A stretch of 64,000 nucleotides of DNA from Catajapyx aquilonaris (lineage: Eukaryota), in NCBI GenBank assembly GCA_000934665.2, contig JYFJ02000886.1:1-64000 (forward strand), in the 5' to 3' direction. Position 1 is the first letter of the stretch; each line of letters opens with the position of its first letter. The notes under the pieces are model-generated. The model saw only the letters and a list, made by a program, of their open reading frames with translations, ran no database searches and was not told where the DNA came from. This document shows positions 5,201 through 64,000 of the stretch, one piece after another. A program made the position numbers and the translations under genes.

Positions 5201-6658
5201 GAGCGTAATGTGCCAAACCATTTATCCGCTTTGGCATTTGATTGTCAGCCTAGCCCGTGTCCACTAAAGACACCAGACCCACGTCAAAGGTGACCAATGC
5301 TGGAAAGCAATAGAAAAATGTTGGGTTGGCCCAAGTCCAAACCTTGCGCCTAGAGGATTGGGCAGCAAGAAGAAAATTAGACAGGAATAGGGAGTGGAGG
5401 GAAGGGGAAAAGAAAATCAAGATGGATGTTCGGGTTGTTGGTTGCTATGCAGGGCGTTGAATTCCGGGGAAGTGTCCCAAGACGCAAGTGGAAATCTGGC
5501 TGCCCTCCCTTTCATGCCCAAAGCCTACAAGCCTAGGAAGCTGCAAGGAGGCTTCCAATCCCTTCGCGGATATTTGAGGCCCAGACATCAGTTTGGGGCC
5601 AATCCCTCTCTAGGGGGGCGACTCAGGCTTCCAAATCCTGCTCAACAACGCCCTCTCTCATCTTTCACAACTCATGGAAACTTGGGCTTACTCCTTTCAC
5701 ACTACCACTTGGACCAATCCCTTTAGGTGCACATGCAGTTACTTATGTGTGGCTCCATCATACGGCAGAGTTTTAATGTCTGCGCCCATGGTGCCATCTA
5801 GACGACCTTGGGTCTTTGTCCACTACTGGTTCAATCATGGGCAGGTTAGTTCCTTTCCACAATGGTATCATCACTTTAGCGATATCAATCAAATTTCATG
5901 CCAGAGTAGTTTTTTGTCACGTTGATGATGTTATCGCAAATCTCATAATGGATGCGCCCGAAGAGATTTTCCCTTCGTGGAAGCAAATGAGCGGGAAATT
6001 TCCGTTTCATCATGCCATGCCTATACAATGTTATTGGGATTCAAAGCCAAAAGACTTCAAAGAAAGCTCATTAGTACCAAAGAAAAGTTGATTTGCCAAA
6101 TATCAGTCCGAAAAGTTGATCAAGGTTATTCCATTCCGCGATGATTGCGGCTAATTTCAGGTATTCAATTTGAACTCCCTTTCATCGGGTTTGGGTCTTT
6201 CAAGGGCGATTGGGAGACCGCAATGAGAAAACAGGTTCGCTCATAAAATGAAGCAACTGTGAACAAGTAGTTACGAAATGATAGCTGGCTAGTGTTACCA
6301 GCGTAACTGCAAGCTATTATGCTCCGACGCGACGCTTAAAAGTTAATTTATGAAGATAATTATAGTGATTATTTGTAGACTCCCAAAATGGCGCCAGAAT
6401 GCTCCCTACATAGGAATGTCCAGGGTTCGATCCCAAGTGGAAGTTATAATATTAGAAACATTGTGAATCAGATTGGCATCATACACATCACGGCTTTTTC
6501 CTAATATTGGGGTGCCAGCGCATAATGAGGAGGAGGTCCTCCTTACCCTCACACGATCACATGATGTATATGATGATATGATGATGAGACTTACATCATG
6601 TAATAAGTAGCATACCCAGAATTTTGATCCATCACAGTGTATACTGTATAATTATATA

Positions 6659-6987
6659 CAGGGTGTTTCAACTATTTTGTCCGAACAGTTATCGTAAAAT
6701 TGCACGTAGCTGTTACTTTGTAAGCAGTGACTTGCAAACGGTGATTTTTCGGAGGAACAGGGAATATTCCCTGTGAATTGTAGGTTGAAGTGGCATGCGT
6801 GCTGCCCGCTGAAAATTGAGGGTCAAGCCTGGAAAAAAGAGGGTCACACATGCCATGGAATGTGTGACCCTCTTTTTTCCCATTCCCCATTCCTCCGACA
6901 AATCACCGGTTGCAAGTCACTGCTTACAAAGTAGCAGCTACGTGCAATTTTACGATAACTGTTCGGACAAAAAGTTTAAACACCCTG
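6659..6987. mobile_element. Tc1/mariner-like MITE, family CAGGGTG-1, copy 1
   Basis: TA|CAGGGTGTTTCAA ... AAACACCCTG|TA, inverted arms of about 95 bp, internal palindrome at 6831-6880, homologous to 19579-19809. Confidence 0.92.
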
Positions 6988-7333: not shown

Positions 7334-8537
7334 TTATATAGGAGTGGCAATATAACATAGGAGACTGACACTGCACGGACCTCAAGTACTTAAAAAAACC
7401 TCAAAAATATGCACCAGGGCAAAGGGCAAAGGTTTTCGTTGCTGGATTTTCAAAGTGAAGTATGCAAAAATTTTGAACAATAAATTAGTCATTCAAATGA
7501 GGCACATAAAAATTAATATAAGGATAAAATCTGAAACCAACATTTAATATTTGTAGACGATTATTATAATCTCTGCCTTAAGCTTCTGTGTCAGCAAAGA
7601 TCAAGACTTAAACGATACTACAGGGGATGGCATACAGTCATACACTAGTAACTACCATTATTCGAGAGAAGTGCTTAGATGGAAGTGATTATAAAGTTAA
7701 TAAAAACACTGGTCCAGGTATTCATAACCTCGCGAGAGAATATTTGCGCAACCACATTGTTCCCAACTGCGAGGTTGGCCGCAGTTTTGCACAAGCCTAA
7801 CGGATTAGGCATTCCATCGCATCGCAAAAAAAGGAGTTCCCCCGGATTTTTTAAGAGGCAAAGGCAATATTGACTTTATCGAGTGTATTGGAGTTTTCAC
7901 GCCCGACGCCCAATCTCCTTTTTGGCCCGTTAGCCGATTACAGGCAAAGTCGAGCCTCCAATCAACCTTTGCTTCCTCCTTTGCACAATCACGTCCTACT
8001 GGAAAAAAGACGCTGATGCTAAACTTTGTGGCTGATGGGCTGCACTAAAAAGAATTGTGTGTGTCGGGAGAACGAAAAGAGAGAATTTCTCATGTTATTG
8101 ACAGCCGCCTTTTTTCACATCGTCGCATGTCGCAGGCCTAACTCGTAAGTAATGCCCGATACTGCTGGTTCAGGACTCCAAAATGCACTGTAATGTATCC
8201 CTCTTCCAACTACCCCAACATTATGTATATTTCAATCCGACTTTTTTGCTTCATGAGAAAAAGCACGTTGTTTTGACAGCACGAAGCAAACAGAGGTCCC
8301 TGCAAACCAGATAAACGATTTAATTATTCGGCGTATGCCTAAGGGCTCTCCTATTGGCATCCTACGTGCATCAGTACACAAAAGGTTCGCTTTGTGTCAA
8401 CTAGTGACCAATCTGCAAATGATCTCTCCATTACTGCCGTTCAAAAAATTTGTCTATTTGTTATACAACAATAATCCCAGCGTATTTCCTCGTGTAATTT
8501 AATCATGCTCGTGTCTTATACAGTAGGAAATTATATA

Positions 8538-8700
8538 CCATCAATATTGGGGTGAGATTGTGTCAGGGTATTTTTGGACAACAATGCGGCCTACTGGCAG
8601 AAGGCGTCAACTAGCGAATTTAGGCATGTGTCGCTACATTCCCGGTAGGGCGCACTGTTGTCCAAAAAATGCGCTGGCACAATCTCACCCCAATTGACGG
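8538..8700. mobile_element. TA-flanked palindromic MITE (CCRTCAA termini; pogo/Tc1-like)
   Basis: TA|CCATCAATATTGGGGTGAGATTGTG...TTTTTGGACAACA pairs with TGTTGTCCAAAAAA...CACAATCTCACCCCAATTGACGG|TA. Confidence 0.85.
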
Positions 8701-8707
8701 TATAGCC

Positions 8708-9132
8708 CAGCCCCCGGACACTTCCCCTACCATCTTATCTTATCGCCTGCCGCCGGCAGGCGATAAGATAAGATTGTAGGGGAAGTGTCCGAAGATTGTA
8801 GGGGAAGTGTCCGTTTTGCAGGAGGTGCTCACCTGAGAGCGCCATGAGACCTTTCACTGCACTGTTATGTGGCGACCCTACTGGACTACGCTGAACTTTA
8901 TAGGTACAAAAGGGAAGTGCTACATTGGGGGACCCAACATGGTCGCCTGCGGCCATGTTGAGCCCGCATGTAGCGGCTTCTCTTCTACCTTAATTCAGCG
9001 TAGTCCGGTAGGGTCGCCACATAATAGAGCAGAGAAAAGCTGCCTCATGGTGCTCTCAAGCGAGCACCTCGTGCAAAACGCCCCGGCAGGCGATAAGAGG
9101 GAGTGTCCATACCTTAGTATACTAAGACCATG
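8708..9132 (+). mobile_element. Asymmetric-ended fold-back element, copy 1 (CA...TG ends, 8-bp TSD, no TIR)
   Basis: TSD GTATAGCC at 8700-8707 and 9133-9140. Left end CAGCCCCCGGACAC, right end CTTAGTATACTAAGACCATG. Large internal palindrome at 8812-9080. Homologous to 40533-40872. Confidence 0.85.
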
Positions 9133-12100
9133 GTATAGCCTAAGTACACAAACTGCTGACACTGGGAAGTATTTTGCCGATCGTTTGATTGTTAACATTT
9201 TCTCCTCACAGGTCGTTTTCATCTACAGAAATCTTGATCAGGAGCTGCCAAGCTGCTTGTCCTTCTACAGCACCTGGATCATATGGCGGGTCTTATTTCA
9301 CATGCAGGGCGGGTAGAGACGAAACAAAGGCTGCATCTAAATCAAGCTAGTTGACCTGCAGTTGCCTGGGGCGGACCAATTACTATGTTCTTTAAGTCTG
9401 AGTCAACCACCTTCATTCATAAACGCCTGAATTGGCTCTCACCAACAACCGGTCTGTGTCACCTTGATTTTTTTTTTTGTCTTACCTGGCTGGTCAGGAA
9501 TTTTTTTTATAGACTTAGGTGATACAGACTCCAGTCTAACAGCTGTGCCACATCTCCAGACATCTGTTTAGTGGGCATCCGGTAGGTTTTTAAAGGGTGT
9601 GTCATGGGCCGTAGATTTGTCTTACCTTCAAATTTTTTCAAAATAAAAAATGTCTTAAAGTACAGGTAAGAGCCATTTCCAACTTCGTTTGTTAGGATTT
9701 ATTATAAACGACATTCTTGAAGGAGGTGCTTCCACCTGGCGGCTAAAATAATAATTCGGTCCTGACGTGAACACGTTTATGCCTGTTTGTTATTGCCTCT
9801 GTTTGAGGAAGGACTGCCTAAAATCATCGTTTTAGCATTGAGACTTTTGACATTACTCATTGGTACTTATGCCATCTACACGCAAAATATTTGCAGAACT
9901 GAACACAGTAGAAGTGTCTAATAGCATACAAGACTGCTTGTTCAAACTGCTGTTAACATTTCATTTACAGAGCGAAGCAAACTTTGACATGTAAAATGGG
10001 GCTTCTAACGTTAGCTAGGGATAAAGAAGCGACCCATTACATTGAATTCAATTGCTTGGTTTTCCACATGTTATACTGTAACGTATGTTGGAGCTACAGA
10101 AGTGTTTCCTAATGGTTTTCCCAAGCACTGTTGACTCTCGATTCACTGGACCAGTCACCTATCATCTCCCCACACAGGAACCTTCCTCTTGCTGGCACCA
10201 TCTATCGGCAGACGGGCAGAGTATCGTAATTTGGATAAATCTACATAAAAAGTAACATGTCGATTTTCACACGTGACACAAGAATGCTCTGATTTTGTCC
10301 GAAGGCTATATTTATGCATTGGCAGCTGCCCAGATAGTGACGTTGAGATGTGAAACTATGTTGAATAATATGACAGCATTGTCAAACTAGTCCAGTTTCA
10401 CCCCCTATTATCATCGCATTATGCATGATTATTTGAGTCATGTACCAGCAAAAACACGCGTTTTTCATCAAATGAAGTGCCTATCTTGTAAACAGGGTTT
10501 TTAAAAATATTGTAACAATTTGCTGCACCCTTAGATGTTGATCGACCCCACGGTTTCACTTTCATCCCATGGAGGTCATTCAACTTTAAGGCGGGCTTAC
10601 CTACTTAACTTCCTAGGATGCACTTGTCACCGGCCTTGAAAACGTGTTTATCAATGGAGCGACTTGTTTCCGCTCTCTCCTTCTTGGCCAACACGATTTT
10701 CCCACGGTGTTAAACGCTTACGTGGATAGTGTACCAATAGGAGAAAGGCTGCTTTTGCAACCGTAATACATAAGTGGGTAAATCTGACGATTCTCTATTT
10801 AAGCTGATTTTACTATTGCTATGTCTATTCCTTGGATAATTTTCACGATTCATTTCACCAAGTGACATTCGGCAGCAGTTGCAGTATATTATGGACTACT
10901 AGTGGCACACTTACCCCTAACACTTTATCACCACTAAACTTAATGTAGCCTACTGTGACCCTTAATACTGTTGGTCGCTAACAAGCATAACAGTTATAAG
11001 CTGCGTACGGGGCGAAAATATTCCAATAACAATTTTTACGGAGCCTATCATCATCCTGAACGTGTTTAATGTAAATCTTCATATAATTACGTAAAATAAC
11101 TGGCTTTAAGGGTTAAATTATCGTCGTCAAATTTGCTGGCAGCGGTTCGGTCTAGTTTCGAATAATAACACTGCAAACTAAGCATTTCGGAGCATGTTCG
11201 CTAAAGCTTATGAGACAGAGGTTTGAAACTCCCAATTAAAATTTCATTTCCAGAAGCAACTGCAGTATTAGGCCAGTCGTCCACACACATATACAAGGTC
11301 GGAAGCCCAAAGTTCGGTAATTAGCGGTTTGTAAAACGGGTTGCAAACTCTTCAAGTTTTTAACGGACTTGAGAAACTCGGGCCTTTCAACTTCAACATT
11401 TTCTAAACCTGAGCCGTTAGGAGCACACGAATTTTTCCAGAGCACATGCACATATGCGGTACTGTACACATTATTTTGTAGTAGCTAGTACACAACCACA
11501 CATGAGTGGTCTAGAATCGGGGAAAAAATCGTTATTCTGTGGATGAGCGATTTTTTTCAGTCAATAATGAAGCGAGTGTATTCGGCTTGAAAATATCAGG
11601 TTTTTTTCTTTTATTGGCGGAACACCTGTCAAGCTTTTCACATTATGCAATAGACTACCTGCAACATTCCACGCCGAATGTATCCCGGCAGATATGTGGA
11701 GATGGACTGCATGGGCGTAGATATGTGGTCCTCATTATCTCGTCTGTGCGCGCCTCACTTCAGATATTGCAACCTAGGCATATCCACGTTCAAACTTTTA
11801 ATAGACCTCCGTTTATGGATACTTTATGTTAGGCTCTGGAGGGCTCTCCGTCCCATTAAAGGATATCAGTTTCGATTTTCACCAGGAAAGAGGATAAAAT
11901 CCCTACAGGTCTGCGGCATGCGATACTATTTCTGCAAAACTCGTCAAAAGTATAAGTACCGGCAGTAAAACAACAAGAACAACAATAATAAAAATAATCA
12001 CGCCATGATGATATTAGAGAGTGGTCAAGTGATACTCCCACACCAGCAGGTACAGTAGGTATATTATTTAAGCAACATTTCTGGGCGACAATCGTGCTAT

Positions 12101-15231: not shown

Positions 15232-17540
15232 AACTTGATTATTTCCATTTAAAAATTCGAAAAGCATCAACTCCTCGTGAGTAATTCCGTAAGCTAATTT
15301 TGACAAAATTCTGGAATCCACACCGTTTAAAAGGCTGAATCCTGAGTAATGACAATCAGCCTGCCAGAAACAACATGGCTCACGGACTTCATCCAATTCC
15401 TGCTAGTTACACCACAGGCCGACAGGTGCCAGGTCACTCGCCAAAAAATATAGACAAAAAAAGGAACTGGTCATTGCTGAGTTGTTAGGGCAACTGAAGA
15501 AGTGGTGCAGAAAGAAGATTGAACGCCCTTCTCCCACGTCTCTATTTTTCTGGAGCAATAATGGGCGTCTGTAACATCCACAAGCAGGCCTAGCGTTGGA
15601 GTGCATTGTTGCTGCAACTACAGGACGTTGACAAATCCATTTTTCCTAGCCCACAGAACCACAAGGATTTCCAAGATCGATTCCATTTTTGGCATATTCC
15701 AAGCTATGTTAGGCATAGTACATAACTATTATTCAATAACCTTTTTGCACCCACCTCGTTTTTGATGTCGAATCTTCCAGTGGCAGTCAATAGCCCAGCC
15801 TTTTGATCATGCCCCGTGGAAATAGCTACCATTATCTGAGGTTGCTGTCAACTAAAATTACCTCCCAGGCTAATACATGGCAAAAAGCGCGGGCGGTAAA
15901 AAAAAGTTAGAGAACTACTTTTGTAGTCACGCAAATAAATTGCTTCATCTCGGATGAAATCTCATTAACCTGAATATTGGCAACCAATATGTATGCAGAG
16001 AGGTTGAAAAAAAATGTCCCCATGTGCTAATAATGTAAAGTACACCTGCGTGGGCACGACATGGGTTCGCAATTTCTGCGCGGAGACGCACAAATCATGA
16101 GACTGTAATTGCGTAGTTTTGTCCTAGGGGACGCCTAATGCTGGCGCCCTGTAATTAGGCTCTATGATTAGTCGAACAATATGGGCGTCAACAGGAATGA
16201 GTATGGCGCGGACGCAGCAGAGTGCCAGGGGTCGAATTGTAATTCGTAACCCAACCGGTTCATTCGGATCTATAGCATTACAGTAGTTTATTTACGCTGT
16301 CATGAGTCATGTGATCAGTCAAAATTTTTCAGAATTTGGGACAAAGGATCAGCGTGCCTCGATAGCTTTGGAGCTAAATTAGAACTAAATATACAGTAGT
16401 GTCATAGAAACAAGCACTGCAATATTTCAGAGCGTGTGGACCAGCTCTCAGCTTTTGCCTAGCCTTTTTTAGAGTTTGATGTGTTATTAGCAAACTAATC
16501 GGAAAATTTTTGGAAGCGATATGGAAAATAATTCAAAGCCCAAGCGGAATCTGCCCTTGTTGAGGTTACAGTAACATTAAAATTGCTATTATATTAGCCG
16601 TAATTATATCCCGATCAAATGGCTCAGCACTGTACTAAAAGGGCAACAAATTGGAATCCGGCACACATTTACGGTTGTCGACATGCCATTAAAAAGCACC
16701 ATATATGCTGAAGCCAACAACTTCGCAAATGCATATTTCTTAACATTGACAATCGGACATTTTTTGGTCCAAATTTACATTTACAAGCTAGGTTAACCCG
16801 CAAGCTATAGGTCCATAAGAGGGTGATCAATGATTGGGGATCTGTTAATGCGTTGATTAATGATGCGTGGTTATGCACCTGCACGAGGCTTTTCATGCGT
16901 GCCGAGGTTGTCGGGTGATAAATCTCCACCCTGGCTTACTCTGCTTAACCACAGGATAAAACAAATTGACAGTAAGCGGAAGTTGCAATAATGATATACA
17001 AATACCATCACCAGGGACTGGAAAGGGTTCATGGAAGGAGAGGGAATAAGAAGTAGCTTCCAATAAATTTATTCCTCGCACAAAATGTTTCTGGCCTCTG
17101 CTAGACAATTACGATACTATATGCCTTGTACATTCGTGGAAACTCTGTTTTTAATTAATAGTTTTCCAACTTTCCTGAATTCAGGGTTTCAAAATAATAA
17201 GGTGAGGCTTCGTTGTTTTCGAAGACGGATGTAATAAGAACTCGCATGCAACGAGTCTATAGTCAGATGAATAATCATATTTCACCAAATTAGGTTAGAT
17301 TGGCAAGCGAGGCTGTAGTAGCTGACATCTGGAGGCATCCACGTGTGTTACAGTAATGGTGTCCCTTCTGGGTATATGTATGAATTTTTGGTGCTGAACC
17401 AAGTGCTCGAGTTCTGCTGTGTCTGACGATACAAATTTAAGCTAAACTTGAAAGAAATTTGGATACACAGATGGCCATAAAATCGCTACTCGGTAAGAAT
17501 TCCACTCATAGCACTCTCCATCTCAACAACACTGGCAAAT

Positions 17541-17764
17541 CTGCCATCAGATGTGAGAAGACCGTAACTCATTATCCACTTCCCTTGCGGCGAGAAAAGA
17601 AAGCAAGTGTCACCGAAAGCATCCAAGTGGTGGCGTTGGGGGAAGGGGAAAAAAGGAACGGCGTCCCAACTCCACCTGTTGGGTGCTTTTGGTACCACTG
17701 CTTTTTTTTCTCGCCGCAAGGGGAAGTGGACATTGAGTTACGGTCTTCTCATATCTGACGGCAG
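17541..17764. mobile_element. Palindromic MITE with 4-bp AAAT TSD (Sola-like, tentative)
   Basis: AAAT|CTGCCATCAGATGTGAGAAGACCGTAACTCA... pairs with ...TGAGTTACGGTCTTCTCATATCTGACGGCAG|AAAT. Arms of about 100 bp. Confidence 0.85.
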
Positions 17765-19578
17765 AAATCTGCGCCCTTTCAAATGCCATTTGAGTTCTCC
17801 ATACACTTTCAAATCATATGAGGCGAGATCGGGCTGTAGGGTGGGTGGGATAACACCCAGGCTGTCCCTATGGGGGCTCATATAGGTGTTGGTCTCTAAA
17901 TTGGCATGTGAAGGTCAGCTCTTGATCTATTATAGGCGATGCTAGACTTGTCCAGATTTTCGGTACTGTACTAATTCATAATGATGTCCAACATGTGATG
18001 CCGTCACACAAACAGAGCAATAACAACACAGTATTTATGATTTAGGGTGACATTTATTAGCTGCAATATGTACAAGCTTTGGAGAAATTAGCTAATAGCT
18101 GGGTCGCAGTCTATTATTGTGGGAATCCCTGTTTTGGCCATTTTTGAAAAGGGCTGGCATAATTTTGTGTACAAAGAACTTTCCAAATAATTGCATAATA
18201 AAACATGCAGATTTTTTGGAACCATGTAATTAGTCAGCCTAATAATGAAGTTGACACAGAGATGAAAAATTCAATACCGAAATTGGTAATTTAATTTATA
18301 AACATACAGGGAGATGTGCTAATTATTACTAAATAACATTCATAGTACGCCATATTTGAGAATAAAATATGAAATGACCCTTCAAATCATCCTAATGAAA
18401 TCGGCATTTAATACGATTAAATTTATTACAGGCAGTGTTGCACAAATAAAATTCCAATAACTAACTAACTAAATATAAGCTAATTATTATCAGCAACAAA
18501 CAACTTGTACACGCTGAACCTTCCAGTCAGATGACTTTCCCAACTTCTCCGTAGTAAAGGGTCTGTCAAAATGTCGTGACTGAGCTTTGCACAGATGTGA
18601 AAATCAGCTCGAAAAATATATTGGATCGATCCTAGCGTGGGCAGGTCCTCAGTCCTTTTCTTTTCTTTTTTACTTTCTGCCTATAGGTGACGTCCTGTGG
18701 GCCAAAGATGATCGATGATCACACTGCACGGCACAACAAAATCTGCGCGGAGAATAAGGCTCCGGGAGCCTGCAGGCGGCCACTATTGACCTCTTTTATG
18801 CTGGGCCGCTCGACAATCCCCGGCGGAAAACCAGATGGAATTTGCGCAAACGAGCGCAATCATTATCCATAGTGTAAGGAGCAAACAGCTGCTTCCTGTA
18901 ACTTCAGCCTTAAAACTCTCTACTTGGAGTTGCTCCAGAATGTTTCCGAACTTCTCCTGCGTCGTCATCAGCATGTTTCCCGCTGCGGGCTTCATTCTTT
19001 TTAACCCTCTCTCTTCCTCCTACCCTCCTCAACCTCACCTTCCAAAATGACAAAGGCAAACTTGTGCTCTGGAACCATGCGCGTAATAATTGTGCACCCG
19101 GTTCTTGTGTGACTCAAATTATGACACTGCTTACTTTGTCACCTAGCAGGGGCGCTCAGGTAGATATACCCTAATACGTACATCTCTCTCTCCTAGTTTT
19201 CTCCCTCTGGGAGCTCAAGTCATTTGGAGCTTGTTTGCTCTGAGCAGACTGCTTCTATTGCAAACAGGCCACGGATAAACCCCCGGACACAGGCGGGCAC
19301 AAAAACAAATTTCCCGCGCCGACATGGAGCCTTCATCCCTCCCACATGTTGATCTAAGCAATGGCTAAGGCGGTAAGGCCTGTCCAAATAGGCTGTGCAT
19401 CATAGTTTTTTTCTCTCAGCCCTGGATTAGTTTCGTGACGCTTCATTAGTTCAGGTAAAATGTGTGGTGACTTGTAACATGATATGGTCGTTACAGTATG
19501 TTCAAGCATATGGGCGAATCAGATTTATTGCGAATGGTGGTTGTAAGCATAAGTTATTATAAGTTCATACACGGTATA

Positions 19579-19809
19579 CAGGATGTTTCAACTTTTTAGT
19601 CCGAACAGTTATCGGAAAATTGCACGTAGCTGCTACTTAGGAACTGGGAATATTCCCTGCGAATCGTAGGTTGAAGGCTTCAACCTACGATTCGCAAGGA
19701 ATATTCCCCGTTCCCCCGAAAAATCACCGTTTGCAAGTCACTGCTTACTAAGTAGCAGCTACGTGCAATTTTCCGATAACTGTTCGGACTAAAAAGTTGA
19801 AACACCCTG
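19579..19809. mobile_element. Tc1/mariner-like MITE, family CAGGGTG-1, copy 2
   Basis: TA|CAGGATGTTTCAACTTTTTAGTCCGAAC ... GTTCGGACTAAAAAGTTGAAACACCCTG|TA. Centre is a loop-less fold-back, GTAGGTTGAAG-G-CTTCAACCTAC. Confidence 0.92.
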
Positions 19810-19948
19810 TATTACGTGACAGCAATGTTACATTGGGAGAGACTTTGCAAGTGAGGAGCTGGGCTGCCCCAGCATGTTGCCTCAGCCATTGGTTTTCACA
19901 GTTTGGAATGCTGATGGAGACCATTTCATGGCGGAATTAACACACTCG

Positions 19949-20080
19949 GGGCCGGCATCATCATTGTTTTTAAGTCATTTACTCTCCGTATATCCCCCTA
20001 AAAACGGTCGGTCCCGACAGTTTTGGGGTGGAGGGATTTACCGAGAGTAAATGACTTACGAACACTGGTGCAACAGGCCC
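19949..20080. mobile_element. Short palindromic MITE, PIF/Harbinger-like (GGGCC...GGCCC)
   Basis: TAAGTCATTTACTCTC pairs with GAGAGTAAATGACTTA, and AAAACGGTCGG with CCGACAGTTTT. GGGCC/GGCCC termini, TAG on the right flank. Confidence 0.7.
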
Positions 20081-28860: not shown

Positions 28861-31043
28861 TTCTCTGCCAGTTTAGTTAGATCCTGAATTATCAATTAAG
28901 CACTAACAAGAAACGAAGCAGTTTGAAATGCTAAGTTTCTTTATTTTTTTAAGAACAACTAGCAAGTGCATAATACCGTCTTTTCGTGAAAGTGTAGGAT
29001 TCCAGTCCATTTTCTTCAGATCTAAAAATTCTAGCACCGTCCACTAAAAAACGCTGTAATTCTCGCTACAAAAAGTAACTCTCAGGCCTATTTTTCCACC
29101 CTGACAGCAAGAAAGATGGCAGCCATGTTGATGGTGGCGTGTACTGGCGCCTAGGCCTATAAGAAAAAGAAAGGGGGGAGCGAGAGAGCAATCCTTCTGA
29201 GGGGGAGATAATACTTGACGCACGTGAGTTATTATCGGTAGAGCGAAGGAGATAGAAATAATCAGGACAATATAAAGGAAATAGAGAATCGACAGAAGGG
29301 GCGTAGAGGCGGAAATGAAGCCTTGGCAAATGGATAAATAACACGATGCCAGCGTGTAATAGAAAAATTGCTCTGGGTCCCCACACCTCATTAACTATGA
29401 GCAAGCAGGCCAACAAGCCAGGCCGTGTAGATGAGCTTCTGGCCGCAACTATGTCGGCACTAGTCCTACCGTTTCTCTCTACGGGCCAGAAAATTCCTCT
29501 CGTGGGAAAATGGCGTGCCCCCCCCTNCCCCCCCTCTGTACACCCCCACACATCCACATGCGCCACTGGTCATTTCAAGTCCTACTTCGTTCCTTCCCTA
29601 TTATGCTGGCTATGAACAGCACCATTCAGATCCGAGGACGCCACAAGAAATGTCTGCAGCCACTCATAGTTTAGCCAAATTAGAATTGCTTCGTTATCAG
29701 GGGTAATTGCATTGCTGTATGCAGTGTATCTCCTGTGTTTTGCAGCTTATTGTAAAAGTACGTGGCGTGTTACACCGTGTTGTTTGGGGAGGACTGTATA
29801 TGTAGACGGCTTGGCAACTGGGGGGTAGGTAGGGGGAGGAGTAGATGGGAGGGCAGTGAAACCGCCTGCCTCTGGGACTGCTATTGAACGCTTCCTTGTC
29901 TCGCCTTCATTCTCCGCTCTAATTAGGTTGCCGCCCAATGTTTATGTGATTGTCCATTTCATTCCACCAACGGATCGATTGCAGCCGCATACTATACCTC
30001 CTTGCTGCAGAGTCAATAGCCACCTGTCACCATTCTTGCTCTGCCATTAGATCCTGCTTTATTTCAAGAAACTGCCTGACCAGTGTAATGGCACGTTTTG
30101 ATTACAGTCTAACAGCTTGCCACATTCAAATTGCTTTCGAACTTACGATTCGCTCGAGAACCTTTGCACGGAAATGATCGTGACATATGGTCCTCATGAA
30201 ATGTGTGGATATTAAATACGTAACACGCAATGTCCATTTTAAAATTTCACCAGATAATGATGAGGTAAAGGACTGAAGAGAATCCAGTGGAAGAGCTGAG
30301 GGTAGCAAGTGGTGATGCCAAGAATAGCCGAGTAGCTCCTCCTAAGGATCACATTTCCTTCAATTCTCACCCAAGTCCGCTTTTACAACACAATAACACT
30401 ACTTACTGTTGACGTGCAATGCTCGTGACGTAAGGATTGCCGGCAAGCTTTATTGTAGGCATAAAGAGCTTCGGAAGTGGATAAGAGGAACTTCTTGTTG
30501 CACTCCGCCAAGACTTCATAAATTTCCGCACCCTCTCGGGGCAACAAATTGTAATGCTCGTGTTAAAGGAGAAGTAGAGTAGGAAGAAATCTACCGTATA
30601 CAAGGGGGGGAGAGAAAAGTGCCAAGCAGCCTAGGAATCTGCTGGATCTGCGCTAACAATCAACAGTAAAAGCTAGACAGAATGTGACATTAACGATGTC
30701 ATTATTCTCCGTGATGCTCGTAAAATCATGCCAATAAACAACGCTGCATTACAATTATTGTCATTTTACACATAGCAAGTACTTCCAAAAATAACCCGTT
30801 CATAATATTCGTTATGATTCCATTTCAGTAAATTGCCGGAAACGCCAGAAATTTACAGCAAAAATTTATAACTACCATAGACCTACCATAAATGACTCTG
30901 TCACAAGCTTTATGTGTTGTGTAAAAAATAAGGACTTTCGTAATGGAAGACCGAATGTGGCAGAAGTAGGAGCACGCTGCACCAACCTACTCCATGACCT
31001 AACCTTCCTTTCCAGCGGATACACGCTTATCCTTCAGCAGATA

Positions 31044-31359
31044 CTCTCCGATTCACATAAGAGTGAACCTTTTTCGATATGCATACGCCCGAGGGGTCGG
31101 TGAACCGCCCGAAAGCAGTGCCCGACATGGCGCTGACATGGCGGGCCTTACCGCTCTTCACAACAAAATGTGCAGTTTGTGTCACGCTACAGCTACCGCA
31201 TGGGCTGCCCATGATAATTAGGCATTCGAATTACTTGTACCAGCACTGTTTCTTCGAGAAAGCCATAGATACCGGGGACTAATTTTGCGGCGCGGCGGCT
31301 CACCGACCCCTCGGGCGTATGGATATCCAAAAAGGTTCACACTTATATGATTCGGTGTG
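31044..31359. mobile_element. Tc1/mariner-like MITE, TIR about 65 bp, TA TSD
   Basis: TA|CTCTCCGATTCACATAAGAGTGAACCTTTTT...CATACGCCCGAGGGGTCGGTGA pairs with TCACCGACCCCTCGGGCGTATG...AAAAAGGTTCACACTTATATGATTCGGTGTG|TA. Confidence 0.85.
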
Positions 31360-32371
31360 TACACGCCTAGGAGAGTAGGTAAAAGTGCAGGGTCTCCTGT
31401 TATGAAAGCGTAGCTCTGTAAAAGTCCTGATATCCTTAGGCACAATATAGCGCTCTGAATAAATGTTAAGAAACATTAACATGCTCTGAAAATCCATCTG
31501 CAATTTTCAGTTATATTTAGGGTCCGCTACAGACATACTTCTTGCCTTTAAACATGCCTTGATGGAACAAAGCACAAAACTTAGTAGTGTTAGAGCCCAT
31601 GAAAAGGTTTGCGGTGAGGCAGACAGATTATAAGCCAGCCCGACGCCATTACCAAAGCAGATGGGTTATTTCAGCAAAGTTTGTTTTCAGTTACCAGTCC
31701 GTACCGAGGCGGCAAGTCAGCAGACGGAAGCAGAATGAGTAAATTATATCATTTGCCATTTCCGGCCATGTCGAACCTTGTCGATTTGGACAGGATTCCC
31801 TCAGGGAACTTAATGGACAAAGTTCTTAACTGCCAAAACAACGACCAAGTCTCTCATCAATCAGTGTGTCACGAACTTCGGGATAATTTTCTACGCCCTT
31901 TAGAGCCAGGTTGCAGGGCATTCCTTTTCCGATGAGCACAACCGAAGTGATAAGGTACGGAAGGAGGCTCAATTCTTACAGATTTGTCAGTTAACCCAGA
32001 CAGCGGCACGTCTATTTATCTTGTCGTGAATGAATCGGCTCACCAGCAGCACATTATGCTCGAGTCCGACTTCAAGATTAATGGTCAGATTATACTGTAG
32101 AACGTCTTTTTGTTGCACTAGTTTAGTGCGCACTTATCGACTTTATTAAGGCTTGTAACAGATTATTACCAGCTACGTTGTGTGTACTATATGGGTCAAA
32201 ATATTATTGCAGATTTGATTAAATGAAATATTATTTTGGTGTGTTCAACCAAATATTTTTAGAGACACATTCCGCAGATTGTAAATGTTTTAGGAGTAGT
32301 CATGAGGACATACTTATAGGCCACATTTTGTAGGAAATCCGAAGTTGGAGAGAATTTCTATAAACTTGGAA

Positions 32372-37500: not shown

Positions 37501-39229
37501 AATCATAACATCGCCTGGTCGTATGTCTATGAATTGCACTGTTGGGAGATATGGCTGCCAAGGGCAAATATTTAATCACATTTATGGCCTTGCATGTGAC
37601 GGGTGCCGCATGTGCTGCTGTTACGATTAATGACACTTGTACGTGGCCGCGAAACAAAGTTTGCCAAAGAAAGTCAGGCTCCCTATGCCAGGAGATTAAT
37701 ATTGAGAAAAAATTGCGCTCGTATTAAAGGCCAAGAGCAGATCTAGGATGAACCTGTGATATCCCCCCTTTTAAACTACAAAAACTGTCGCATAAGTGAA
37801 TTATAGCCTAATTTACTGGCTCGCTACAAACTATCGCTACTGCGGGACCAGTTTTATGGCCGGTTCCATGTGACACTATCTCGGAGACACGCACAAGCAA
37901 ATGCCTGCCCCTACAAGGGCGTCATGTTTCAACACACTCAAAGATTACAACTTAATGAAGTTCCTACTGGCAAAGCATTGGCCTTCCAAAGTAGTCCGTA
38001 CAGGGAATGATGCGGAAAATCGAAAATATCCGAGAGGAGGCGCAAAACCTGGCTTCGGAAGATCATATAACCGGTCCTATCTGGCGATATCAGAAAGTGG
38101 TACTCCAGGAGCTAGAATTTAAGCACGCGAATTTTGTATAAAAAATATAAAAAAATCGCAACAATTGCACTTTTCAAATATTATTGTGACGCCATGTTCG
38201 ATATAGTGACTTGATTTCAATGGAATCATCCAATTTTTCCCCATTGGCTGACAGCTCATTCTGAGCATTTTCAACTTCATTCATCGATGATGCCTGCACA
38301 ATGAAGGACTCTGAGAAGTGCAACAGAAGATGAAATCCATTATTGCTACGTTAGTTAATCTCGGGCGACCCTTTTGCGTGGGGAAATCGATACTTCGGCT
38401 ACTCTCCTTGCTACCGAAAAATCCAGCACTCTCTGCTGCGCATTCTAAGCCCCCCATACAAGGTTCGATATTATCAAAAGACATTATTCTGCTCTTTACT
38501 CAATTACAAAAGTAGGACCGATTTTACTCCAATTTTTGTTCCAAATTCTAGCATTAATACAAGAATAATTGCATGGTCCATCTGTAAAAGATGCTGGACC
38601 AGGTGAGCGGTTAGGACTTGCAAAACAACCCTGATTAGGCGTTTGGTATCACTAATCCCCCCTAGAAACATGAGGCTCTTCCTCACAAAGCCACAACTAT
38701 CTCCTTAATTTGATTCCGCGCCCTGAAAGCTTGACACATTGGCCAAAGCAATCGATTGGAAGCAGGCTGCAAGCCTAAACCACAGCTGCTTGTTCCCGCA
38801 GATGCCCCTGAAACATGTCAAAGTGCCAGCCTCATTCCTAGCCTAAGGTCCTTCCCCTTTCATTAAACTGACATATTACTCGTTTACAACATCAGCCTCT
38901 GGCCATGAGAGACTCTCTGCCTCCTATCCTCTCCCTGATTCCCTCTTCGCCTATCTAACATCCACACAAGCCTCATTCGCAACTTCTTATTGAATAGCCA
39001 AAAACATATTCAGCCTATTACAGTATTTACACACTTACTCGTCAGGATGTAACAAAGCAATATTTTTACTTTTTATACTAAAAACCTGCTAAAAACACTG
39101 GATGGAATTTTTGTCCCACTGCTAGTTACCACTTAGAAGTACCAGTGGCAATGGTACTGCTAAGTTAGCAGTAGGCCTAACTAGCAGTGGGATGAAAATT
39201 CTGCCCATTGTTTTTTCTTCCTCTTCGTA

Positions 39230-39491
39230 CAGTGTTGGACATTAATCGCGTCATACTGCTTGCGACATTTTCCGATGCGGCAGAAGTGCAAATCGAAGTG
39301 ATAGAGTGTGAGCCGTGCGAGTGATGTCACCGGCTGGGGGGCAATGGAGAAAAGGGTTGTCCCCAGCCAGTGACGTCGCCCAAGGGCTACCATTTCTTAC
39401 TCGCACAGCTCGCACTCTATCACTTCGATTTGTACATCTGCCGCATCGGAAAATGTCGCTAGCAGTATGACAGAATTAATGTCCAGCACCG
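39230..39491. mobile_element. Tc1-like MITE, inverted arms about 90 bp, TA TSD
   Basis: TA|CAGTGTTGGACATTAAT...CGACATTTTCCGATGCGGCAGA pairs with TCTGCCGCATCGGAAAATGTCG...ATTAATGTCCAGCACCG|TA. A second hairpin lies in the spacer (about 39323-39377). Confidence 0.9.
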
Positions 39492-40532
39492 TACAAGATA
39501 GTGTAGAGTAGTCCAATTCTCCATTTTTTGAGTCAAATTGTATTAACTTGATGGTGTTTTGACTGCTGCGGGGATTACCAGCAGACATGCTTATATTAGT
39601 TGGAAGTTCCTTGTTAAAACTCCCTGTATGGTAATCAAAGTTGTGACTTCGAATGTGGGATTAGAGGATTAGGCCATCTGCAGCCTGACCGAAAGTGCTA
39701 CTATTGTACTTCTAGCGACCGGTCCAGACTATGGATCGTACCATAATTCAGCTTATAATTATGCCTATAACAGTTCAATTAATATTTTCGACATATCTGG
39801 TGGGTGAAAAGTCAGCTCATTTGTAATAAATATAAGTTTCTAGAACAATCATATGCAAGTGTGGCAGGTAGGTTCAGAAAGATTACAACGGTACAGTATA
39901 TCTCTGCTATACTAGTTAAAAATTAAAGAGTAAAATAAGCGAGAGTATGCGAGATTTCTACCGATAAGTGATCTAACTCGTGCTTCATCAGGTGAAAGAG
40001 GTGGTTTTGGCAAAAATCAAAAATAAAGGAATGAAGAAAGAAAACTCAACACCTATGACTACCATTTCACACGCACTTTTGAAGGCTTCGATTTCTCCGC
40101 ATTGCAGGCATTTTGCGCGTCATCCTGCGCCTTTGTTAAATTACTGACGCAAACTTTGGAACATAGCTGCCATCCATAACGAATGTCACGTTCATTCTTG
40201 GATTTTGTGACACCGCCTCTCAGTACACCTGACGGATGTGACTGTATCCGTATCTATATTTGATGACCAACTGAGACTATTCAAAAATATACTTTACACC
40301 TCATGCTATACCTGGGAGACAGAATATTCTTGTTACGACAGCCTTGAATAAGCTAATAGATTATTCATGAAAAAGCTCATTACAGTCTACAAGGTTGTTT
40401 TAAGCCCACTTTAAATGGTATTACTATCTAGAATAAGTGTAAATAAAGTGCTGTCCAACCGGACAGTAACCAGAATGCGTCTAGCATGATTGTGGTTGGT
40501 GGGTCATACACCAGTTGTCCGGCAACCACAAC

Positions 40533-40872
40533 CAACCCCCGGACACTACACCTATAATCTTATCACCTGAGGTGCTCACTTGAGAGCGCCATGAGACCGC
40601 CTTTCACTGCTACATTATGTGGCGACCCTACCGGACCGAAATGAACTTTATAGGTACAAAAGGAAAGGGCTACATTGGGGGACCCAACATGGTCGCCGAC
40701 GGCCATGTTGGACCCGCATGTAGCGGCTTCATTTCTACCTAAGTTCAGCGCGGTCAGGTAGGGTCGCCACATAATGTAGCAGTGAAAGGCGGTCTCATGG
40801 CGCTCTCAAGTGAGCACCTCCTGCAAAACGCGATAAGAGGTAGTGACCAGACCTTAGTATTATAAGACCATG
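40533..40872 (+). mobile_element. Asymmetric-ended fold-back element, copy 2
   Basis: Left end CAACCCCCGGACAC, right end CTTAGTATTATAAGACCATG. TSD ACCACAAC (40525-40532) versus GCCACAAC (40873-40880). Internal palindrome homologous to copy 1. Confidence 0.85.
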
Positions 40873-41062
40873 GCCACAACAATCCAACGACGCCCGTGTG
40901 AACCTAGCCCCGAAAGAGGTTAATATCAAGCAAGATCCTGTAGAAAGTGGGCAATGAACCTGTTGAATGAAGCAGCAAAATGGTGTTCATCTGGGACAAC
41001 CGGGTGAATCGTCAGGAGGACGAAAGGAGTGCTCATAGCCGAACCACAATCCATCATCGTCG

Positions 41063-43307: not shown

Positions 43308-43759
43308 AGGTGAAGTGGGGTAAGTGCATATATGAAGGGGTTAGTGCCATAACGTGCTAAGCCACACTTTTGTGTTTTTTGAGCTTGCACGTGTCTGAAA
43401 GTCCCACCATCGTGCCTCACAAGTGGGCATCACGTAGTTAGAAAAATTCCCCATAGATCACGAGAAAATCACGAATAATGTTCCTTGTTTTGTATGATTT
43501 GCCATATTAAGCCAAACTTTTGAAAGCCCATATCTCAGAATGAAGGTTTTGTGGCTTAGCACGTTATGGCACTAACCCATTCATATTGTGCCGCCATGTT
43601 GGAATGAAAATGGCTGACGACACCAAAACGCGGGGGGATGTTATGTGCAGCTACACAAAAGAGTGCCTGACGCGTTTTGGTGTCGTCAGCCATGTTCATT
43701 CCAATATGGCGGCACAATATATGCACTTACCCCGTGTATGCACTTACCCCACTTCACCT
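43308..43759. mobile_element. Palindromic MITE (AGGTGAAGTGGGGTAAGTGCA termini) interrupted by a nested MITE
   Basis: Removing 43333-43585 restores GGGGTAAGTGCATATATTGTGCCGCC, the exact reverse complement of the right-arm GGCGGCACAATATATGCACTTACCCC. Confidence 0.88.
43333..43583. mobile_element. Nested MITE with 33-bp TIR, ATAT/TA-flanked
   Basis: TGAAGGGGTTAGTGCCATAACGTGCTAAGCCAC pairs with GTGGCTTAGCACGTTATGGCACTAACCCATTCA. The target duplication is visible against the host element's intact arm. Confidence 0.9.
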
Positions 43760-47668: not shown

Positions 47669-48009
47669 AACCACTTACCGTTTTAAATAATACTGTACAC
47701 GGTATATAGGTTGTATGTCATTTCTAAGCGGCATAAATTCCTCCAACGTATAACTTGTGCTGGTTAAACTTATGCCTTCATCTCGTTGTATAGAAGAGGC
47801 GAACACAGCAATTCAATGTAAATACTTTTAAACTAATAATGATTAAATAATTACAAGTTTAGAATTAACAGTAGCCTACAGTTTTGCTAAAGAGAGTGGA
47901 GAATTTGTTGATTAAATATTATCACTTCGCTCCTAACTTAGGAGCAAGGGATATCAAGTGTCACATCAACACACTACAGTCAACAGCGGATAGCTGTGTA
48001 TAACTTATA

Positions 48010-48264
48010 CAGAGTGTTCCAGATTCGTGGGTCACTTTTTGATAACACTGATATCGCCCGATTGCAGTTATTTTTTGTAGCTTGTTGTGCCCCTAACCAC
48101 GTGCTCCATTCTGTAGCACCTGCTATAATCGACTCCCAGTGGGTCGAGTATAGCAGTAGTTATAGAATGGGGCACATGGTTAGGGACAAAACAAGCTACA
48201 AAAACTAACTGCTATCGGGCGATATCAGTTATCAAAAAGTGACCCACGAATCTGGAACACCCTC
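48010..48264. mobile_element. Tc1/mariner-like palindromic MITE (CAGRGTGTTCCAG termini)
   Basis: TA|CAGAGTGTTCCAGATTCGTGGGTCACTTTTTGATAAC ... GTTATCAAAAAGTGACCCACGAATCTGGAACACCCTC|TA. The arms pair almost to the centre. Confidence 0.9.
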
Positions 48265-48619
48265 TATACACACAACGCACTAGCATGGAACCCGTCACAT
48301 TGTTATAATATTGGGTGTCTGTAGAGCCACCATGGAAATATGACAAAATGGCATAATTCCACGAGTTAAATATTAACCACGTTATTATAATAATATATTA
48401 TTAAAAGTGGAACTGTGACAAGTATGTTTACCACGGAAAATTGACATGTAGCCGCAATTACCAATTAACCAAGCAAAGTGTGTATATTATTTACACCTAA
48501 CACTCGAGAGTGTCGTCCACTGGCGTCATATGAGCCATGGGCTATGCGCATGTGATTATTAATTAGTATTATTAGATTGTCATTGTTTATGATTTGCCAA
48601 ATTGTTTTTGATTATTTAT

Positions 48620-50496: not shown

Positions 50497-50541
<45 letters not shown>
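50497..50541. repeat. Compound (GT)n(GA)n microsatellite
   Basis: Direct reading. Confidence 0.95.
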
Positions 50542-61300: not shown

Positions 61301-63387
61301 AGAGGAAGTTAAGCACCTTTGGAACCACCCTGTATATAGTAAATTGCCTGTTCGTCATTTTCCAGCCTATACCGGTATATGAATTGGTCATGACCTATAA
61401 TGAAGCAATTTATCCAAAATAAGCAAAATAAATTATTTAACAATCAGATGTTACAAGAGAATCGAGCAATCCAAAGTTTCTGTTTATTTCATACATCCCA
61501 CAACACGCAGTACATGCGCTGTATTATAAAGGATTGTTCTCTCCAATATTATACAGGTCCTTTCCATACTGCTAATAGGTGCCTGCTTTAAACGACACGC
61601 TACATGTAGGCACATTTGTAATGCACTTTTACTTCAAACACATCACACACTGGACAGTGCCTTTTATTCGTTAATACGCACATATTGCAAAGCATCGCAC
61701 TTTATGAACAGTGCATGGTAATAAATCGTATTAAGGTCATGTTGTCAAAAACTGATCAACTTTCGATAATGAATTGTTTGATTATAAACTAAACGGACTA
61801 ATTATTCATGAACGTATAGGGTGTGTATACCATTAGTAGGCCTACATTGCATGTCAGGCATCAGATTTGAAATTCCATGTGTTCAATTCATTACACGGTA
61901 TTATGAGGTCGTGGCTAATTAGCTTGCTTCTGCATGTGTTACTGCCTCAACGATTTCTGAGCAACTTTATTATTGGAGGACTAGTTTCATTTTCAAAACG
62001 ATGCTGCATTCATGGGTACAGACCAAATGAGGAAAGAAGATTCTGCATGCGATAATATAGGCTTTGCATTCCTATATAACTCGATATAGCTAGTGTGCTT
62101 AGAAAATGGCCATCAACTTTCTGCCAAGCTATACTGATTGGTGGAAACATGTGGAAACTTGTAGTACAGAAACTAGCAAAGATGATTACGTAGCACACTG
62201 CTACCTTTATATCCAATAAATTGTGGACTAGATATTTCGCTATTACTCCTGCTTAAACTTGAATTGAACCCCCTTTCCACATGGCACTATTCACTTTCCT
62301 ATATTGGAAGTATAATACAAGTAATAGGTTACCTTCATTCAAATAAAAATTAAATTAGTGAGTAGTCTATAATATAGCCTATCGAGTATATTACCAGAAC
62401 TTATTATCCCCCAAAACTACTGCAGCGACGTCGTAGGCCGCGTGGGTCGAGATTATTCGATACGATGTCTACGGCCAATGCGTGGGCCAATGAAAGCATA
62501 AAATAATATGGAGCATCTGAGAAAAGGTGTCATAAATACAAAAAAATTAAATTGAGTTACATGTTGCACAGAATATAGTCCTCTCCAAGGATGATCTGCG
62601 CAAAGTCGAATGCAAAGGCACAAAAAATAAATAAGACTTATTTGCGTATGTGGATATTAATTAATAACCTATTAAATGTTCCTCTTTCTGGAATGTGGGG
62701 CATTCCTATGTCTTCGCATCCGTCACACATTATTGAGGTCAACAGGAACTGATTGAGCTGAATAACATTTTTCATGGATCTCTCATATTTCTGTATGTAA
62801 ATCCTGCGCGTTACATTATCCAAGGTCTCAATATGTACCGGACAGTACTATTGTGATCAAAACGACATCCCTATAATTTCGAATACAAGCAAAATCATGT
62901 GCGTCATAATATTCCCGTGCTCTCTGTCATGCATTAAAAGTTGGGCCAGATACATTACCCTTGTTACAGTCAACTCGTTGGAATCACTCGCGATGAAACG
63001 ACTTCATCTTTCTGACCACAATAATATTATTGTATATGATCCAGGTAATGAACAATGACAAGACTAATGACAGCTTGGCAGAAAACACACATGTACTGTA
63101 CATATGAACTGGACTTTTAAATCATTGACCACAAAAATTATGGAAGGTTGTGACATCATGCAGAAAGCCACCCTGCAAACAGTGACAACCACAAATTCCG
63201 GTGTCCCTCCAAAAGAATTTGAAGAGTTGCCACTCTATATACGGGGTAAGCGAAGGTTGGCAGACTGTGACATCGTGCTTGAAAGTCAGATAAAGGGATT
63301 TTAACCATGTTTTATTTTCTAATAAATTAATATTTGCCAGAGTTATACAGAAACTACAATTGTGTAGGCTTTTAAAATATCCAAGTA

Positions 63388-63529
63388 CTATGCTCCTCAA
63401 ATTGTTTTGGCCACTTTATCCTGGTCTTGAAGCAACCCTTCGCACAGACTCCACGTTGAGCAGGTGTGTGTGTGTGAAGGGCTGCTTCAAGACCAGGATA
63501 AAGTGGCCAAAAGTATTTGAGCCCCATTG
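63388..63529. mobile_element. Tc1-like palindromic MITE, TA TSD
   Basis: TTTTGGCCACTTTATCCTGGTCTTGAAGCA pairs with TGCTTCAAGACCAGGATAAAGTGGCCAAAA. Right end TTTGAGCCCCATTG|TA, left end more decayed. Confidence 0.85.
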
Positions 63530-64000
63530 TACATTTAAGCCAAAACTTGCATAGAAATATTAGTAAAATACAAGTGAGTCAAATTACAAGCACTCTCTCC
63601 GTAGCTGGATAGGCTTAAAATGTTATTTAAGTTATTCCCTTTGCATTCCCGGGTAGCCTATTCTTCCCTTCATTTGCATCGAAAACTAGTGCTTGATGTA
63701 ATGGCAGATGCGAAGATCAAATTGAATTGTTTAGTGTGGTAAGATAATAGCACACTCGCTTCCATATGCACAGTCACGCATGAAAGATTAAAAAGGATGG
63801 AATAATACTGCATGATATAATCATGAACCGTTTAACATGAGTATGATGCTTTGTTTACAATCCATACGCTCTTCTTGGTTGCGTAACACTATGGCATAAC
63901 AATGCAGATAGAATCCTAAGACTGCTTGAAAATTTAGTTCATAAAATATAATATCACTCATGCAGTTCGACTCTCACTGTTCACTGAATCATCTTGTGGA

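Follow-up and report, generated by a model that had tools for sequence, protein, structure and literature searches.

A highly repeated fold-back MITE with target-site duplications and asymmetric ends lacking terminal inverted repeats

We describe here a MITE-type transposon, real and abundant, whose ends are unusual in being asymmetric and in lacking terminal inverted repeats (TIRs). Two copies of it, A (positions 8708–9132, 425 bp) and B (40533–40872, 340 bp), are present in the window, that is, the whole 64,000-nucleotide stretch of DNA analysed; the element and its parts are given on the + strand, the duplications that flank it without strand. All generic traits of MITEs are found: the element is short (340–425 bp), non-coding, high-copy, flanked by target-site duplications (TSDs) and endowed with subterminal inverted repeats. 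As to how it moves, our leading reading, held tentatively, is that of a non-autonomous cut-and-paste fold-back MITE mobilized by a hAT-superfamily DDE transposase (Ac/hobo/Hermes type) whose gene lies elsewhere in the genome.

The two copies are 83.8% identical over 314 nt by blastn, copy B carrying deletions in both subterminal arms with respect to a typical copy; no third copy was found in the 64-kb window, either by blastn at word size 7 or with an nhmmer profile. The flanks of A are unrelated to those of B, and each copy lies between duplications of its own. In copy A the octamer GTATAGCC is repeated without change at 8700–8707 and 9133–9140 (8/8); in copy B, ACCACAAC at 40525–40532 and GCCACAAC at 40873–40880 are identical at 7 of 8 positions. 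Among 2,000,000 random boundary pairs drawn in the window, an 8/8 flank match occurs at a rate of 3.2e-5 and a match of at least 7/8 at 5.3e-4. Both copies, with all the features ascribed to them, had been placed at these positions by the first-pass annotation, which took them for independent insertions of a non-autonomous mobile element, each with its own TSD; unrelated flanks and separate duplications bear this out.

The left end opens with a unique tip of 8 nt (8708–8715), CAGCCCCC in copy A and CAACCCCC in copy B, corresponding to CA(G/A)CCCCC and followed in both by GGACACT. The latter begins the left subterminal inverted repeat (8716–8752, GGACACT...CTTATCGCCTGCCG), which pairs with the right one at 9084–9108 (CGGCAGGCGATAAGAGGGAGTGTCC; inverted repeats I5 and I7). 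Beyond this lies a unique right tip of 24 nt (9109–9132), delimited by comparison of the copies and by the contig ends at 9132: it terminates in CCATG, and in both copies its end follows the pattern CCTTAGTAT(AC/TA)TAAGACCATG, reading CCTTAGTATACTAAGACCATG in A and CCTTAGTATTATAAGACCATG in B. A 21-mer of this tip, allowing up to 3 mismatches, is matched twice in the window, against 0.02 matches expected by chance. The tip of copy A holds a perfect 14-nt palindrome (9113–9126), 6 nt from the end of the element; the hairpin originally noted there is thus perfect in A, while two uncompensated changes in B leave a stem of only 4 bp.

When the two tips are paired end to end, complementary bases amount to 3 within 8 nt of the ends, to 3 within 12 nt and to 4–5 within 20 nt, terminal CA/TG included; the figure of 3 out of 12 holds for both copies, and two of the three are the terminal CA/TG themselves. 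Pairing sets in with GGACACT/AGTGTCC, at a distance of 8 nt from the left terminus and of 24 nt from the right one. The two ends are therefore unrelated and the inverted repeats only subterminal, exactly as first annotated. Nor are TIRs hidden outside the boundaries, since contig sequence beyond both ends (outside 8707 and 9132) shows low agreement, i.e. consists of unrelated flanks. A composite origin, in which a TIR-bearing palindromic MITE would be nested within a short host element, was rejected because the bases beside GGACACT...AGTGTCC are not duplicated. Separately, an isolated stretch of 13 nt at 19278–19290 (AACCCCCGGACAC) was noticed to reproduce the left end of copy B exactly, with the rest of the element absent nearby; it could be due to chance or be the remnant of a related end.

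A view of the whole family was obtained by matching Logan contigs from four DNA runs in which the locus is present to the region 8408–9432 at a likeness of at least 80%; the runs are to be taken as replicates, not as independent evidence, because they derive from one sample of one study. Between 1539 and 1819 contigs per run match the element, 459–491 of which match only partly. Summed depth rises from 17–29 on the single-copy left flank to about 50,000–107,000 in the best bins of the core; such sums are not to be read as copy numbers, and the family comprises hundreds to thousands of copies. The positions of loose contig ends were calibrated on those at 8812 and 8752, "before" denoting the first matched base and "behind" the last. 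Among the best-supported loose ends, from which junctions were counted (776 further ones exist), the leading left junction is a match start at 8707 (29–36 contigs per run) and the leading right junction a match end at 9132, after which 18 contigs of run X3 continue into unrelated sequence. Beyond both junctions the agreement of the consensus is 0.38–0.43.

At about 10 positions, among which 8882, 8918, 8948, 8961, 8993, 9033, 9043, 9051, 9061 and 9071, copy A carries a substitution where 76–100% of the family depth has another base; it is not a young copy. The summed depth of the palindromic core (8812–9107) is about tenfold that of the tips (8708–8757 and 9108–9142): this is in part an edge and collapse effect of the contigs, and other subfamilies with the same core and different tips could contribute. 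The right flank of copy A (9143–9432) has almost no contig cover in the four runs, against a depth of 17–29 on the left flank; filtering of the records may play a part.

An 8-bp duplication predicts that the consensus of one flank matches that of the other over exactly 8 positions, and this is what the four runs of the single sample show: the agreement extends over 8 positions and not beyond. On the left, the last 7 letters of the loose-end consensus are, by run, ATCTCAA, ATCCCAA, GTCTCAA and GTCTGAA, followed by the matched C at 8707, a base common to the junction contigs and the last one of the TSD in both window copies. On the right, the loose-end consensus starts with ATCACAAC and then departs from that of the left flank. 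A target motif, approximately RTCNCAAC on both sides, follows as well; its letters are plurality ones, with an agreement of just 0.38–0.43 in one sample. The register of the duplication is ambiguous between 7 and 8 bp, as a 7-bp TSD, with the C assigned to the element, fits nearly as well; 8 bp is favoured because a C also occupies position +8 beyond the right boundary, as both window copies and the consensus of the right flank show. A 6-bp TSD (ends CCAG...CATGG) and a 7-bp one (end ...CCATGG) are also exact in both window copies. These registers, which place the G at 9133 within the element, are disfavoured since the 18 X3 contigs cease to match at 9132 and their next base is not G.

The interior of the element is a fold-back structure. 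Folded as single-stranded DNA, copy A reaches -154.5 kcal/mol (z -20.7) and copy B -135.6 kcal/mol (z -24.2). A long central palindrome, with its centre near 8947/8948, spans 8812–9083 (inverted repeats I1, I3 and I6), where summed contig depth is highest. Between it and the left subterminal repeat, copy A bears a private insertion (8753–8811), a hairpin-forming copy of the left arm with a 22-nt tandem duplication (inverted repeat I2, direct repeat D2 and a tandem repeat). In the Logan contigs, other copies skip 59–61 nt at this point, joining 8752 to 8812–8814 with the loose-end consensus GGGCGTTTTGCA; they read ...CGCCTGCCG-GGG-CGTTTTGCAGG..., the exact complement of the right arm. A typical element consists, therefore, of the 8-nt tip, a palindrome running almost from tip to tip and the 24-nt tip, with an estimated length of about 370 bp. 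The palindrome had been noticed from the start; the extent of about 270 bp then assigned to it is too small for typical copies.

At 8717–8789, where copy A has a perfect hairpin of its own, miRNA-precursor models of Rfam match below threshold. The best of them, mir-1258, scores 49.9 bits (gathering score 74), and the matches can probably be put down to generic hairpin shape.

Fold-back transposons of Drosophila, such as FB and Galileo, likewise consist almost wholly of a long inverted repeat and are flanked by short TSDs. Their repeats reach the very tips, whereas here the fold-back structure is capped by 8 and 24 nt of unrelated sequence. The coral CMITE elements were also considered, and set aside as unrelated because the abstract describing them ties them to piggyBac (PMC2872659).

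The window as a whole looks like non-coding eukaryotic DNA: the 64 kb contain 2 ORFs of at least 150 aa, and GC content is 40–44.5%. The stop-to-stop frames that reach 55 aa number 371, and the 166 longest were scanned; none of the 166 reached a Pfam cut-off, and no transposase domain was found among them. The best sub-cut-off matches were Transpos_assoc (17.7 bits, cut-off 27.7) and MUC20 (16.5 bits, cut-off 30). Three of the scanned frames overlap copy A and one overlaps copy B. Outside the window, conserved 21-mers of the element had no match in the metagenome collections, and the element had none in viral contigs; three matches in prokaryote genomes (actinobacterial records), only 20–27 nt long, were discarded as chance.

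The window is very rich in MITEs. A separate fold-back element of 171 bp (8534–8704), with arms TATACCATCAAT...ATTGACGGTATA and 76% self-complementarity, adjoins copy A upstream; it is itself highly repeated (summed depth 750–14,400, family ends at 8702/8703), and its final bases fall within the site into which copy A inserted. At least 10 further small palindromic, MITE-like elements were recognized, at 802–1044, 6656–6980, 17537–17768, 19566–19822, 19949–20080, 31037–31366, 39225–39496, 43583–43720, 48006–48268 and 63380–63537. Several of them have ends of the type TA|TACAG(G/A)GTGTT, a sequence feature which suggests partners of the Tc1/mariner type. The window also contains a long G run at 629–668, including one of its two N characters, and a (GA)16 microsatellite at 50509–50541.

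Two of the alternatives to cut-and-paste transposition are readily dealt with. With Helentron-associated interspersed elements (HINEs, DINE-1), which move by rolling-circle transposition, the element shares its general layout, namely inverted repeats in subterminal position on either side and, not far from the 3' end, a short palindrome (PMC4067079). According to the same source, however, canonical Helitrons make no TSD, and Helentrons and HINEs insert within TT and have T runs at their boundaries; here, both copies feature 7–8-bp TSDs and CA...TG tips with no T runs, and the flank consensus is common to the two sides over 8 positions. The presence of TSDs contradicts such an origin, in line with the first-pass annotation, and we regard it as very improbable. 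Even less credit can be given to the idea that the copies are a non-mobile palindromic repeat, dispersed by segmental duplication or recombination and bordered by repeats arisen by chance. Nothing specific speaks for it; copies A and B have unrelated flanks, the flanking repeats fall exactly at the shared boundaries in both, and each run contributes hundreds of contigs lying only partly on the element.

Insertion with a stagger of 7–8 bp implies that the partner is a cut-and-paste transposase of the DDE type, and three groups of such enzymes come into consideration. The left tip of the element starts with CAG, as is common among hAT elements. An 8-bp TSD is found (8/8 and 7/8 in the window, with flank agreement over 8 positions), a 7-bp register being possible; the short TIRs that define hAT elements are missing, only 3 of 12 end bases being paired and just CA/TG being shared by the two ends. 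For Hermes, target preference is given as nTnnnnAn, the TIRs as 17 bp long and imperfect, and the left and right ends as dissimilar, with asymmetric subterminal repeats needed for activity (PMC10368747). Sites used by Hermes in vivo include GTGTCAAC, GTGTGAAC and ATGGCCAC; in a tally of 16 of those reported, position 1 is G or A in 14/16, position 2 is T in 14/16, position 7 is A in 12/15 and position 8 is C in 9/15 (PMC2803484).

The hAT superfamily is ranked first because the flank motif resembles the Hermes preference and because Hermes ends, too, are dissimilar and require asymmetric subterminal repeats, a dependence that the present element may share. With Hermes, Ds-like elements and hAT MITEs it has in common the 8-bp TSD, an apparently nTnnnnAn-like motif (sites of the RTNNNNAC type) and CA at the cleaved tips. 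In contrast, Hermes has 17-bp TIRs and Ds is reported to have 11-bp ones, against the bare CA/TG shared here, and the whole interior of our element, unlike that of hAT elements, is one long palindrome. The motif, moreover, is a consensus of low agreement (0.38–0.43) from a single sample, and the TSDs of the window comply with nTnnnnAn only in part, copy A having just the T at position 2 and copy B just the A at position 7; a 7-bp TSD, nearly as good, would be P-like too. The first-pass annotation had excluded hAT on the grounds that hAT MITEs have true TIRs. Much of its interpretation is borne out (mobility, TSDs, CA...TG tips, absence of TIRs, no relation to Helentrons or HINEs), but this exclusion finds no support: the sole signal at the superfamily level, namely an 8-bp TSD with flanks of the approximate form RTCNCAAC, leans towards hAT.

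Read on the opposite strand, the right tip opens with CATGG, resembling the CATG with which the Drosophila P element begins. P elements make 7–8-bp TSDs, so that the 7-bp register would suit them as well, and have subterminal inverted repeats; a non-autonomous member of this superfamily, dependent on a THAP-domain transposase, would be recognized at subterminal sites that are not equally far from the point of cleavage at the two ends. In P elements the spacing between terminal repeat and transposase site is 9 bp at one end and 21 bp at the other, which parallels the offsets of 8 and 24 nt seen here (PMC7776569). Both the Drosophila P element and the zebrafish THAP9 transposon, nonetheless, differ in having perfect TIRs, of 31 and 13 bp respectively (PMC7776569), absent from our element; the second TSD position in the flank consensus is T, which is what Hermes prefers, and no THAP or P transposase frame was found among the 166 frames compared with Pfam. 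A P-like partner is, on balance, quite unlikely. A derivative of a DDE lineage naturally devoid of TIRs, either Dada-like or an undescribed family measuring fixed distances from subterminal repeats, is rather unlikely. As described in PMC3706591, Dada elements have no TIRs, subterminal inverted repeats of 7–9 bp and TSDs of 6–7, possibly 8, bp, a layout close to that of our element, with its subterminal repeats and 7–8-bp TSDs. Six strings from the element found no match in the full texts of papers, which is compatible with an undescribed family but is no proof that the family has never been catalogued. Those Dada insertions whose ends can be defined, however, all lie in U6, U1 or tRNA genes (PMC3706591). 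No such target adjoins either copy: snRNA and tRNA searches of their flanks returned no match with E up to 1, the window contains no tRNA gene and no Rfam family at gathering score, and the flanks of the family are heterogeneous in the contigs of the one sample. Of the Dada-like affinity first suggested, what stands is the combination of absent TIRs and subterminal repeats, while the targets argue against it.

Assuming a hAT-type partner, we infer the following course of transposition. The transposase would bind not a TIR but the subterminal repeats, GGACACT...CTTATCGCCTGCCG on one side and its complement on the other, and would cleave at the CA...TG tips, which are separated from the left and right repeat by 8 and 24 bp, respectively. 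The 3' ends would then be joined to the target with an 8-bp stagger, preferably at sites resembling RTNNNNAC, and repair of the stagger would produce the 8-bp duplication. The unequal spacers of 8 and 24 bp, together with the 14-nt palindrome contained in the longer one, may make the two ends functionally distinct, an asymmetry comparable to that of the left and right ends of Hermes and of the 9- and 21-bp spacers of P elements. More speculatively, and with a rather low probability in our estimate, the family may belong to a eukaryotic DDE lineage, be it an offshoot of hAT that has diverged or a group new altogether, whose transposase reads no TIR, docks on the subterminal repeats and cuts at a set spacing from each, 8 bp on one side and 24 bp on the other, the palindrome marking the right end. 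Such a two-spacer rule could be likened to the 12/23 rule of V(D)J recombination and to the P-element spacing of 9/21 bp.

MITE families with subterminal repeats are already known as a kind; what is unusual here is the asymmetry of the ends and their lack of TIRs. Should the partner not be hAT-like, the element would be one more MITE family in a MITE-rich genome. Tools for the annotation and classification of transposable elements lean on TIRs, and would overlook or misassign a very abundant family which bears clear TSDs and lacks TIRs. With a hAT-like partner, the family would provide a natural example of ends recognized wholly through subterminal sites with unequal spacers, and would bear on how enzymes of the hAT, P and RAG type tell left ends from right ones.
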